A stretch of 64,000 nucleotides of DNA from Escherichia coli. Its GTDB lineage: Bacteria > Pseudomonadota > Gammaproteobacteria > Enterobacterales > Enterobacteriaceae. Both the position numbers and the translations under genes were made by a program. The notes under the pieces were generated by a model that worked only from the letters and a program-made list of their open reading frames with translations, was not told where the DNA came from and searched no databases. The stretch lies in NCBI RefSeq assembly GCF_003018255.1, contig NZ_CP027440.1; one strand, 5' to 3'. This document shows positions 6,496-7,488 of the stretch, in pieces; position 1 is the stretch's first letter; each line of letters starts with the position of its first letter.

Positions 6496-7488
6496 GTGCT
6501 CAAGGATTCACTCTCTTCCGCCAGGGTCTTTATGGGGCTATCACTATTATTGCTAGCTCTGGTGCTGTTTGGTGCCAGTCAGGGAGCGTTAAAGATCAGT
6601 TTTGATGCCCTTTTTGATGAGGAATACCGCGATATCTGGCTCAATATTCGTCTACCACGGGTTTTGCTGGCGGTGCTGGTAGGTGCAGCGTTGGCAACCG
6701 CCGGGGTAATTATGCAGGGGCTTTTTCGCAACCCAATGGCTGACCCTGGATTACTTGGCGTCAGTAGCGGTTCTGCATTAATGGTTGGCGTTGCTATTGT
6801 GCTGCCCTTCTCCTTCCCAGTGGTGCTGGTGCTCTATGAGCAAATGGTGTTTGCCATTGCCGGAAGTTTAGTGGTCTGCACCATCATTTTTCTCATCACG
6901 CAGCGCCATCGCGATGGCAGCATGATGCAATTATTACTCGCCGGTATCGCCATCAATGCCCTGTGCGGCGCAGCGATCGGCATCCTGAGCTATATCGGCG
7001 ATGAGCAGCAGCTACGACAACTCACATTGTGGATGATGGGCAATCTTGGACAGGCGCAATGGCCGACGTTATTGGTTGCCAGTTCATTCATCCTACCGGC
7101 CATTATCGCAACAACTTGTCTCGCCGGAACGCTGAATTTACTGCAGCTCGGTGATGAAGAAGCCCATTACCTCGGCGTGAACGTTAAGCGTAAACGCCAG
7201 CAATTACTGTTAGTGAGCTCACTGCTCGTTGGTGCCGCCGTATCGGTAAGCGGCATTATCGGCTTTATTGGCCTGGTGATCCCGCATCTGATTCGCATGA
7301 CTACCGGAGCAAATCACCGCTGGCTAATCCCTTGCTCCGCCCTCGCCGGAGCCTGTTTATTGCTGATGGCAGACACGCTTGCCCGCACGCTGGTACAGCC
7401 AGCAGAAATGCCCGTGGGATTATTAACCAGCCTGCTTGGTGGTCCTTATTTTATGTGGTTGATTCTGCGCAACCGGAGGATCACATGA
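6496..7488 (+). CDS. chuU: Heme ABC transporter permease
   Basis: 330 aa, GTG start, multi-pass hydrophobic FecCD-type permease. Confidence 0.85.

Follow-up and report, generated by a model that had tools for sequence, protein, structure and literature searches.

The classical gene pairs trpE/trpD, trpB/trpA, galT/galK, and rplK/rplA have overlapping or adjacent stop and start codons, and dependence of the downstream gene on its neighbor has been demonstrated for them genetically; the six pairs of Escherichia coli genes described here are arranged likewise, and for these we infer such dependence. Overlaps of 4 and 1 nt are the modal gene spacing in prokaryotes, and short spacings are 4.5-fold enriched for subunits of complexes. 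In the study of Huber 2019 (PMC6728339), coupling was observed for four of the five native E. coli pairs that overlap by 4 nt, whereas the fifth, bioBF, initiated de novo without coupling. Whether re-initiation by the terminating ribosome or unfolding of the RNA is the dominant mechanism is disputed in the literature. Coupling persists unchanged when the ribosome recycling factor is depleted, a result that speaks against re-initiation being the principal mechanism in E. coli. The debate is a general one, and the loci described below do not help to settle it.

The closest described counterpart of one of our junctions is found in Yersinia pestis, whose heme importer HmuUV (PDB 4G1U) contains an ATPase that matches ChuV with an E-value of 2e-95 over residues 2-254. 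In Y. pestis as in E. coli, the gene for the permease adjoins and overlaps that for the ATPase. The hmuU/hmuV junction as called is an 8-nt overlap, GTGGTTGA, whereas that of chuU/chuV is 4 nt (ATGA), and the C-terminal tail of the permease and the N terminus of the ATPase are of unequal length in the two systems.

We analyzed a stretch of 64,000 nt of the E. coli contig NZ_CP027440.1, referred to here as the window. The initial annotation had listed six stop/start overlaps within it, and direct reading of the sequence located all of them, with the gene names also correct:

5822-5826, plus strand: chuX stop and chuY start (cctgATGac), TGA at 5822-5824 and ATG at 5824-5826, forming TGATG, a 1-nt overlap
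7485-7488, plus strand: chuU stop and chuV start, ATGA, a 4-nt overlap and the focal site of this analysis
48282-48285, minus strand: bcsQ stop and bcsA start, ATGA, a 4-nt overlap
51075-51080, plus strand: bcsE stop and bcsF start, ATGATG, with ATGA at 51075-51078; a 4-nt overlap, or 1 nt with the second ATG
51263-51266, plus strand: bcsF stop and bcsG start, ATGA, a 4-nt overlap with a weak Shine-Dalgarno (SD) motif and an A-rich, unstructured context
57364-57367, minus strand: dppD stop and dppF start, ATGA, a 4-nt overlap

ATGA is therefore found at five pairs and TGATG at one, chuX/chuY. The flanking open reading frames are open on either side of all six junctions, and the six starts are those chosen by PGAP/RefSeq in NZ_AP045067.1, which is 99.5% identical across the whole window. 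The bcsE/bcsF junction reads ATGATGA, such that BcsF may start at 51075 or at 51078; because the second ATG still lies 1 nt into the stop codon, the genes overlap whichever is used. Unlike that of K-12, bcsQ is intact in this window, with Leu at codon 6. Each junction is validated individually by a full-length homologous reading frame with no better in-frame start, by an SD motif, and by conservation across genera.

The genes concerned include the groups chuTWXYUV and bcsEFG, both of which we take to be operons in line with their published structure. Operons bcsABZC and dppABCDF of K-12 are given in Table S3 of Huber et al. 2023 (PMC10666635), and Table S2 of the same work lists the K-12 pairs bcsE/F, bcsF/G, and dppD/F, each with a 4-nt overlap. 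The remaining three pairs, chuX/Y, chuU/V, and bcsQ/A, are missing from that list because K-12 lacks chu and has bcsQ as a pseudogene. The same gene-family pairs are nevertheless tabulated across 1,695 genomes in Table S5 with overlapping median spacings: FepD-type permease followed by hemin ATPase (n = 211) and DppD followed by DppF (n = 301) each have a median overlap of 4 nt, and BcsQ followed by BcsA (n = 107) has one of 1 nt. The six overlaps are thus real, ordinary, and already known, and in themselves they add nothing new biologically.

Their description in the initial annotation as pervasive does not hold against the genomic background. Six of 32 same-strand neighbor pairs in the window overlap in this way (19%), close to the E. 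coli average of ~15%, and the enrichment is not significant (P = 0.35). A seventh overlap had been missed in the initial annotation:

42204-42222, minus strand: bcsZ 3' end and bcsC 5' end, a 19-nt overlap

This overlap, also present in Salmonella and Enterobacter, raises the count to 7 of 32 and leaves the enrichment non-significant (P = 0.20). An ATG overlapping a stop codon where no gene starts occurs five times, at four of the window's 43 other stop codons, and the overlap motif alone is for this reason uninformative.

Close orthologs were obtained by exact-protein look-up, and in every one examined an overlap is retained, with its form varying among 4, 8, and 1 nt. At chuU/chuV it is 4 nt in Citrobacter and Klebsiella, 8 nt in Serratia and Yersinia, and 1 nt in Photorhabdus; across these six genera (including Escherichia), the C-terminal tail of ChuU varies in both length and sequence, yet the overlap at the junction persists. 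Klebsiella has the identical TGATG at chuX/chuY, and the GGAG of the chuV SD motif is kept in both Citrobacter and Klebsiella. At bcsQ/bcsA, ATGA with an upstream GGGAG or GGAG was found in all four other genomes checked, and at bcsE/bcsF, ATGA was likewise found in four of four, Enterobacter having a single ATG. The bcsF/bcsG overlap is 4 nt in Salmonella and 8 nt in three other genomes, and dppD/dppF has the same overlap in Salmonella and K-12. We also considered 33 distant FecCD-type permease/ATPase pairs, which are not close orthologs but were drawn at random from the wider FecE/HmuV family (from a genome scan combining ChuV alignment with generic ABC-ATPase peptide patterns). Among the matches listed, a candidate start lies in a 4-nt or 1-nt overlap with the stop in 21 of 33 (64%), a proportion that gives P = 7e-5 even against a background of 30%.

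One peculiarity of this window lies downstream of the bcsF/bcsG junction:

52027, plus strand: an extra A, causing a +1 frameshift in bcsG

None of the 5,300 complete E. coli genomes with a match to the region has this base, which may be a genuine change or an assembly error; because of the frameshift the bcsF/bcsG junction here leads into a broken gene.

SD motifs are embedded within the upstream reading frame at five of the six junctions, being strong for chuV, dppF, and bcsA and moderate for chuY and bcsF. The two strongest are as follows:

7475-7480, plus strand: GGAGGA, SD motif of chuV, within the chuU codons CGG-AGG-ATC (AGG being a rare Arg codon); ΔG of -9.5 kcal/mol, in the top 0.4% of intragenic windows
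57376-57381, minus strand: GGGAGG, SD motif of dppF, within the dppD codons GGG-AGG (rare AGG); ΔG of -10.3 kcal/mol, in the top 0.3% of intragenic windows

On the same scale of intragenic windows, the bcsA motif (ΔG -6.9) falls at the 2% percentile, and those of chuY, an upstream AAGGA, and bcsF (both ΔG -5.6) fall at 9%. The exception is bcsG, for which an SD motif is essentially absent (ΔG -3.4, 26th percentile). Three of the embedded motifs contain the rare codon AGG, which accounts for three of the 48 codons at the ends of the six upstream genes but for only 19 of 16,970 codons elsewhere (Fisher P = 3e-5). This excess at gene ends argues for selection on the SD motif rather than on the protein. 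When the RNA around the six junctions was folded, no junction exceeded shuffled sequence in stability (z from -0.93 to +2.10, with bcsF/bcsG at +2.1), and although the chuV motif falls within a predicted hairpin, the idea that the start sites are occluded by RNA structure is for this reason unsupported.

Taken with the sequence and its conservation, precedent makes translational coupling the probable function of these junctions, which we consider genuine and evolutionarily maintained in chuTWXYUV, bcsRQABZC, bcsEFG, and dppABCDF, with coupling of a kind that would not fix a 1:1 ratio of products. The architecture is identical to that of the unidirectional pairs of Huber et al. 2019/2023, coupled by termination-reinitiation (ATGA or TGATG, with the SD motif within the upstream reading frame); for the six pairs here, coupling is a reasonable supposition from precedent. 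The ribosome-binding site of the downstream gene lies within the last codons of the upstream gene, and because of this embedding, ribosomes ending that gene would land on the next start codon. Translation of the upstream gene may then promote downstream initiation by unfolding the embedded start region and so admitting a new 30S subunit or, alternatively, the terminating ribosome may itself re-initiate at the overlapping AUG. By either route, output of the downstream gene would be linked to translation of the upstream gene, and any translational regulation of the latter would be transmitted, with the ratio of the two products set by the initiation strength of each junction. Natural nonsense mutations in bcsQ (K-12) and bcsE (ATCC 8739) abolish cellulose production, and polarity on downstream genes has been proposed for them; this could equally be explained by Rho-dependent transcriptional polarity.

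The alternative that survives best, although we think it unlikely, is that the overlaps are the product of neutral compaction, with each downstream gene translated independently from its own SD motif and no functional coupling. ATGA arises easily, since the start codon already provides three of its four bases, and Brown & Wade 2025 ascribe the abundance of 4-nt overlaps to this ease of evolution. Such an account is also in keeping with the de novo initiation of bioBF, with the translation-efficiency ratios of overlapping pairs, which vary as much as those of other pairs, with the lack of any junction predicted to be unusually structured, with the drift in form of the overlap between genera (4, 8, or 1 nt), and with the strength of the chuV and dppF motifs, from which fully independent initiation could occur. 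Against it, the stop and start codons remain side by side even as the sequence around them and the length of the ChuU tail change, and the 64% of distant permease/ATPase pairs that overlap among the matches listed compares with a background of 15-30%. The enrichment of short spacings among subunits of complexes also favors coupling, as does the bcsF/bcsG junction, where the downstream gene is essentially without an SD motif, yet the overlap is kept in five of five genomes.

It is much less probable still that the start codon of at least one downstream gene has been misassigned, the candidates being GTG 7455 for chuV, the second ATG (51078) for BcsF, and ATG 51290 for bcsG. In-frame alternatives do exist, and two observations make the question a fair one: the tandem ATGs of bcsF, where the Enterobacter protein (MSISD) aligns with the second Met of the E. 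coli one, and the ambiguous start of Yersinia HmuV, which is 272 amino acids as called versus 266 in the PDB chain. However, the SD motif is weaker or absent at every alternative start, PGAP chooses the identical starts, the second bcsF ATG would preserve a 1-nt overlap, and the Enterobacteriaceae ChuV orthologs are all 255-256 amino acids long and begin MI.A. The GTG at 7455 was considered because the octamer there, GTGGTTGA, resembles the start of Yersinia hmuV, and it was rejected because alignment shows the octamer to be made up of conserved ChuU Met/Leu-Trp-Leu-Ile codons that are not homologous to the Yersinia junction; this GTG is an unavoidable by-product of the Met/Leu-Trp codons and not a conserved start. 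The supplements of the TRAINSPOTTER N-terminomics study gave no match for these genes, and the INRI-seq data held no entry for the six starts, listing weak alternative sites near bcsB, bcsC, and bcsF only. The suggestion in the initial annotation that the overlaps are useful for start-codon assignment is well founded: a longest-ORF rule would pick TTG 7332 for chuV and GTG 48333 for bcsA, whereas the overlapping ATG has both an SD motif and the support of orthologs. Herein lies the annotation value of the overlaps, which single out the true chuV and bcsA starts where that rule fails.

That ATGA or TGATG at these stop codons is a coincidence, uninformative on gene structure, has a negligible probability in spite of the stray ATGs at the stops of four of 43 other genes, and on grounds of homology and conservation we regard it as refuted, all six ATGs opening full-length frames with strong homologs and aligned N termini and the junctions being conserved across genera.

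The overlaps had also been taken to suggest stoichiometric co-expression, which stands for one pair, is plausible for a second, and is not a valid conclusion for the Bcs pairs. Published proteomics gives a DppF/DppD molar ratio of 1.06 ± 0.07, with r = 0.98 over 25 conditions, making this the sole pair with direct evidence of ~1:1 amounts. The PDB entries for HmuUV contain two HmuV chains each. We take the importer to have a U2V2 architecture, which would make 1:1 synthesis of ChuU and ChuV sensible; a 2:2 complex by homology to HmuUV, and with it 1:1 co-expression, is plausible. For ChuX and ChuY, we know of no complex. The cellulose synthase genes behave otherwise: the complex is BcsA1:BcsB6:BcsR2Q2:BcsG3, in which the BcsQ:BcsA ratio is 2:1 and each BcsA is matched by a BcsG trimer, and BcsF is not seen in the structure maps. 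In the scoring of Huber et al., bcsE/F and bcsF/G are entered as "no complex," whereas later structural work described BcsE-BcsF and BcsF-BcsG interactions. In the ribosome profiling of Burkhardt 2017, relative translation within a pair is as variable for overlapping as for non-overlapping genes, and equimolar output is therefore not implied by overlap; the supplements of that study have no rows for dpp or bcs. In practice, overlap should be read as a sign of dependence and not of equal amounts, the Bcs complex being strongly non-equimolar despite its overlapping genes.

A different arrangement separates bcsA from bcsB, where the apparent gap is 10 nt:

45653-45670, minus strand: the bcsA-bcsB junction, ATGATGATAACGCGATGA, a five-codon mini-ORF (MMITR) that begins on the stop of bcsA (by 4-nt and 1-nt overlaps) and whose own stop overlaps the bcsB start (4 nt)

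Two in-frame ATGs overlap the bcsA stop (TGA, 45669-45667 on the minus strand), by 4 and 1 nt, and the TGA of the mini-ORF in turn forms a second ATGA with the bcsB ATG. An SD motif is absent upstream of bcsB (ΔG +0.5), alone among the closely spaced genes of the window. A 30-nt block here is nearly invariant in Escherichia, Salmonella, Enterobacter, Klebsiella, and Metakosakonia, with two variable columns versus 61 of 100 in the flanks (P = 5e-8), and it is invariant even where bcsA ends upstream, in which case the same frame begins at a GTG in a 4-nt overlap with the bcsA stop. INRI-seq records a weak in vitro initiation peak at the mini-ORF ATG (6.27, two peaks), with none in Meydan's in vivo data; the peak is possibly an offset artifact, since many entries at the same "-14" offset have non-canonical codons. 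In K. aerogenes NCTC10006, bcsA appears to be in the frame of the mini-ORF and to overlap bcsB directly by 4 nt. We have not used this as evidence because the extra T responsible may be an assembly error, bcsA being split there (annotated "bcsA_1").

A two-step coupling relay is a tentative and rather doubtful explanation for this gap: ribosomes leaving bcsA would be handed, via the pentapeptide ORF, onto bcsB. The closest precedents are the synthetic bicistronic designs and short upstream ORFs that deliver ribosomes (Brown & Wade 2025) and the axe-txe minigene (PMC8708949), in all of which the stop of a tiny ORF overlaps the start of a real gene as ATGA. The bcs mini-ORF differs from these in that its 5' end is also overlapped by the stop of the upstream gene, such that it would relay between two full-length genes, an arrangement for which a literature search found no earlier description. 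It is the one lead of note to emerge from this analysis, BcsB being needed at six copies per BcsA yet lacking a ribosome-binding motif. If the relay is true, some E. coli gaps of the class 3n-8 nt (7, 10, and 13 nt) could hide similar relays.

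The initial annotation listed six start/stop overlaps, and the sequence of each junction is as claimed (6/6), with open flanking ORFs whose starts are the PGAP starts. The observation is confirmed, its interpretation is partly supported, and the overlaps themselves are ordinary and already described. A seventh, a 19-nt overlap missing from that list, is also found in Salmonella and Enterobacter and not in Metakosakonia.

Start/stop overlaps in the window, read from the sequence
5824, plus strand: chuX/chuY, TGATG with the common A at this position
7485-7488, plus strand: chuU/chuV, ATGA
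48285-48282, minus strand: bcsQ/bcsA, ATGA
51075-51078, plus strand: bcsE/bcsF, ATGA
51263-51266, plus strand: bcsF/bcsG, ATGA
57367-57364, minus strand: dppD/dppF, ATGA
42204-42222, minus strand: bcsZ/bcsC, the seventh overlap, 19 nt

This 64-kb piece of E. coli chromosome runs from chuSA/chuTWXYUV through the hde-gad-mdtEF acid-resistance island, treF to dctA, bcsRQABZC/bcsEFG, four ldr/rdlD repeats and yhjV to dppABCDF and eptB. Strain JNE23-011 (NZ_AP045067.1) matches it end to end at 99.5% identity, and the RefSeq annotation of that strain was carried across. Differences between the two are grouped in blocks (14850-19240, the mdtF-gadW-gadX-gadA upstream region; 44110-48180, bcsB-bcsA) separated by long identical stretches, a pattern that looks like recombination patches. 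At 52946-54796 lie four tandem long direct repeats of ~483 bp, every one of which carries a 35-aa ldr toxin ORF and an rdlD antitoxin RNA (Rfam RF01813, four matches); the orthologous Salmonella locus has one copy. Further Rfam matches at gathering score are located at 2360-2391, 17914-18026, 12063-12134, 60496-60538 and 62774-63193, the families represented being the shuA/chuA 5'-UTR thermoregulator, GadY, ES205, ES036/CssrF, naRNA4, RtT and a tRNA. The ES036/CssrF match overlaps an annotated hypothetical ORF (60307-60534) between dppB and dppA. The Rfam search of the window placed no RNA family at the start/stop overlaps.

NTGA and TRATG overlaps are the modal prokaryotic gene spacing (Huber 2019; Huber 2023; Brown & Wade 2025, review). 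Table S2 of Huber 2023 includes the 4-nt overlaps of K-12 bcsE/bcsF, bcsF/bcsG and dppD/dppF, and in Table S5 the median spacing is -4 both for FepD-type permease followed by hemin ATPase (211 pairs) and for DppD followed by DppF (301 pairs), and -1 for BcsQ/ParA followed by BcsA (107 pairs). Thus, the overlaps are already known as a phenomenon and in these families, and three of the gene pairs are themselves already listed. The sole reason why the K-12 list lacks bcsQ/bcsA is a TAG at codon 6 of bcsQ in that strain, whereas bcsQ of the window is intact (N terminus MAVLGL). Nor are the overlaps "pervasive," as they had been called: 4- or 1-nt overlaps occur in 6/32 co-directional neighbor pairs and overlaps of any length in 7/32, an ordinary rate against the ~15% of pairs that overlap in E. 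coli (Burkhardt 2017; P = 0.35 and 0.20, respectively). In Huber 2023, 707 of 2,987 unidirectional E. coli pairs are spaced -8 to +6 nt. As a bare sequence motif, an ATG over a stop codon is not beyond chance, and five cases without a gene start occur at four of the 43 other stops in the window (hdeB, yhjG and yhjJ once each; bcsA twice). As gene junctions the six are beyond chance, because each overlap ATG opens a full-length homologous ORF (6/6), no in-frame alternative to the six starts has a better ribosome-binding site, and the junctions recur across genera.

The Shine-Dalgarno (SD) motifs of the downstream genes are placed within the final codons of the upstream genes. Their pairing energies, with tail positions among about 7,000 intragenic windows, are -10.3 and 0.3% for dppF (GGGAGG), -9.5 and 0.4% for chuV (GGAGGA), -6.9 and 2% for bcsA, -5.6 and 9% for both chuY and bcsF, and -3.4 and 26% for bcsG. 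Three of the motifs are built with the rare arginine codon AGG.

AGG codons in the last eight codons of upstream genes
7477-7479, plus strand: chuU, ...CGG AGG ATC ACA TGA
57376-57378, minus strand: dppD, ...GGG AGG CCG...
51245-51247, plus strand: bcsF, ...GCC AGG GCA...

AGG accounts for 3 of 48 such terminal codons versus 19 of 16,970 elsewhere (Fisher P = 3e-5), and this excess provides direct evidence of selection on the embedded ribosome-binding sites. The overlaps do help to assign starts, as had been proposed, since a longest-ORF rule would put chuV at TTG 7332 and bcsA at GTG 48333. ChuV orthologs from eleven Enterobacteriaceae and related genera are 255-256 aa long and begin MI.A. 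The bcsE/bcsF junction reads ATGATGA; either Met could be the BcsF start, and both overlap the bcsE stop.

The gene downstream of the bcsF/bcsG junction is broken in the window, as sequenced. An extra A at about 52027 (plus strand; GGATTAGATG versus GGGTTGATG in JNE23-011) splits bcsG into ORFs at 51263-52063 and 52029-52943 (266 + 304 aa). All 5,300 complete E. coli genomes matching this region lack the insertion, which is either a strain-specific pseudogene mutation or a sequencing/assembly error.

Among close orthologs, obtained through exact-protein look-up, Citrobacter and Klebsiella have a 4-nt chuU/chuV overlap, Serratia and Yersinia one called as 8 nt (GTGGATAA, GTGGTTGA) and Photorhabdus one of a single nucleotide (TAATG); between genera, the ChuU-type permease varies in the length and sequence of its C-terminal tail. 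The chuX/chuY junction is TGATG in Klebsiella as well. At a Citrobacter amalonaticus locus (record L083, 1826-2012), a deletion between chuX and chuU has removed nearly all of chuY; what is left retains the TGATG junction and the first chuY codons. Four other genomes (Salmonella, Enterobacter, Metakosakonia and an Enterobacteriaceae MAG) have ATGA at both bcsQ/bcsA and bcsE/bcsF, with GGAG 8-12 nt upstream each time. Their bcsF/bcsG overlap is 8 nt long except in Salmonella, where it is 4 nt; Salmonella dppD/dppF likewise overlaps by 4 nt. Scanning a genome collection with an alignment of ChuV sampled the wider family at random rather than recovering close orthologs. Among the matches listed, 33 loci have a ChuU-like permease directly upstream, with a start candidate overlapping its stop by 4 nt in 13 and 1 nt in 8 (64%; P = 7e-5 against even a 30% background). 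Stop/start juxtaposition is thus kept while the exact form of the overlap drifts, as would be expected of selection for proximity more than of simple inheritance.

Premature halting of upstream ribosomes abolished downstream translation in four of five native E. coli 4-nt-overlap pairs (Huber 2019). The SD was likewise important in four of five; bioBF was an exception, initiating de novo. By analogy, the coupling proposed at the junctions is supported by precedent. As to its route, about 20 nt of extra distance is enough for reinitiation efficiency to collapse. Upon depletion of ribosome recycling factor, reporter coupling was unaltered and so were ribosome-density ratios across the genome, overlapping pairs included (Saito 2020), a result that counts against re-initiation as the main route. 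Both RNA unfolding and ribosome re-use are kept as models in a recent review (Brown & Wade 2025). Folding was indecisive, no excess of structure over shuffled controls being seen at any of the six junctions (z between -0.93 and +2.10); the chuV SD falls in a predicted hairpin, and the bcsF/bcsG region is predicted to be unusually unstructured and A-rich, a context that may compensate for the missing bcsG SD. We thus favor, as the most likely reading, a coupled start of translation at ribosome-binding sites embedded in the upstream genes. At the SD-rich junctions (chuV, dppF and bcsA), the upstream ribosome would most likely open the site to fresh or retained 30S subunits; bcsG would be the best candidate for true termination-reinitiation.

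The "chance" ATGATG at the bcsA stop was the reason for examining bcsA-bcsB. The minus strand reads CAA CAA TGA TGA TAA CGC G ATG AAA, and in another frame ATG ATG ATA ACG CGA TGA, a five-codon ORF (MMITR). Its first and second ATG overlap the bcsA stop by 4 and 1 nt, respectively, and at its other end its stop forms an ATGA with the bcsB start.

Mini-ORF, from frame reading
45653-45670, minus strand: mini-ORF spanning the 10-nt bcsA-bcsB gap

No SD motif was found upstream of bcsB (dG +0.5); at other 9-12-nt gaps in the window, TAA or TAG is followed by a GGAG-like motif (dG -6.4 to -8.3). A 30-nt block, GGCTCAACAATGATGA(T/A)AA(C/T)GCGATGAAAA, has two variable columns over five Enterobacteriaceae genomes versus 61/100 in the flanks (P = 5e-8), and is further found in two Klebsiella records. 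In Metakosakonia and the MAG, the bcsA stop lies 11 nt upstream of the block, and a GTG overlapping it by 4 nt opens the mini-ORF frame, which also ends on the bcsB ATGA. A candidate relay through both overlaps is an attractive way to read the junction. Table S3 of INRI-seq (PMC9825163) records a weak in vitro initiation peak at the mini-ORF ATG in K-12, to be treated with caution since many alternative sites there lie exactly -14 nt from annotated starts at non-canonical codons (ATT, ATC, CTG), and such entries, that of bcsB included, are possibly a systematic offset artefact. An SD-independent, A-rich initiation region at bcsB would account for the conservation of the block equally well, and a relay alone cannot give six BcsB per BcsA. 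The type-I bcs cluster of a Metakosakonia contig has a direct 4-nt bcsA/bcsB overlap, and in a distant bcsAB carried on a plasmid the two genes are 63 nt apart, without a relay. More than 100 E. coli plasmid records, e.g. L098 (pHZ13-2) and L099 (pLR-62-2_1), carry a divergent bcsA-bcsB pair (57-68% identity to chromosomal BcsB), a 63-nt AT-rich gap replacing the chromosomal junction.

The suggestion of stoichiometric co-expression stands for DppD and DppF, for which absolute proteomics gives a DppF/DppD molar ratio of 1.06 ± 0.07 (r = 0.98; first 25 conditions; Mori 2021, Dataset EV9); DppD/DppC, across a 10-nt gap, is 1.45 ± 0.30 (Mori 2021), with the usual membrane-protein caveats. By homology to HmuUV, ChuU/ChuV would be expected to be 2:2. 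ChuX and ChuY are pathway partners that are not known to form a complex. The suggestion fails for bcsQ/bcsA, which does not encode equimolar partners, and probably for bcsF/bcsG too, given a Bcs macrocomplex of BcsA1:BcsB6 and BcsR2Q2, dimeric BcsE and three BcsG, with BcsF not visible in maps. Genome-wide, relative translation is equally variable in overlapping and non-overlapping pairs (Burkhardt 2017). Overlap would mean dependence, not equality of amounts. Mycobacterial DppD (PDB 8wd9/8wdb) is a single 548-aa chain whose residues 305-522 are matched by ChuV, a hint that it is a fusion of two ATPase domains. If this is true, the overlapping dppD/dppF of E. coli would be one fused gene in mycobacteria, an alternative way of fixing a 1:1 stoichiometry.
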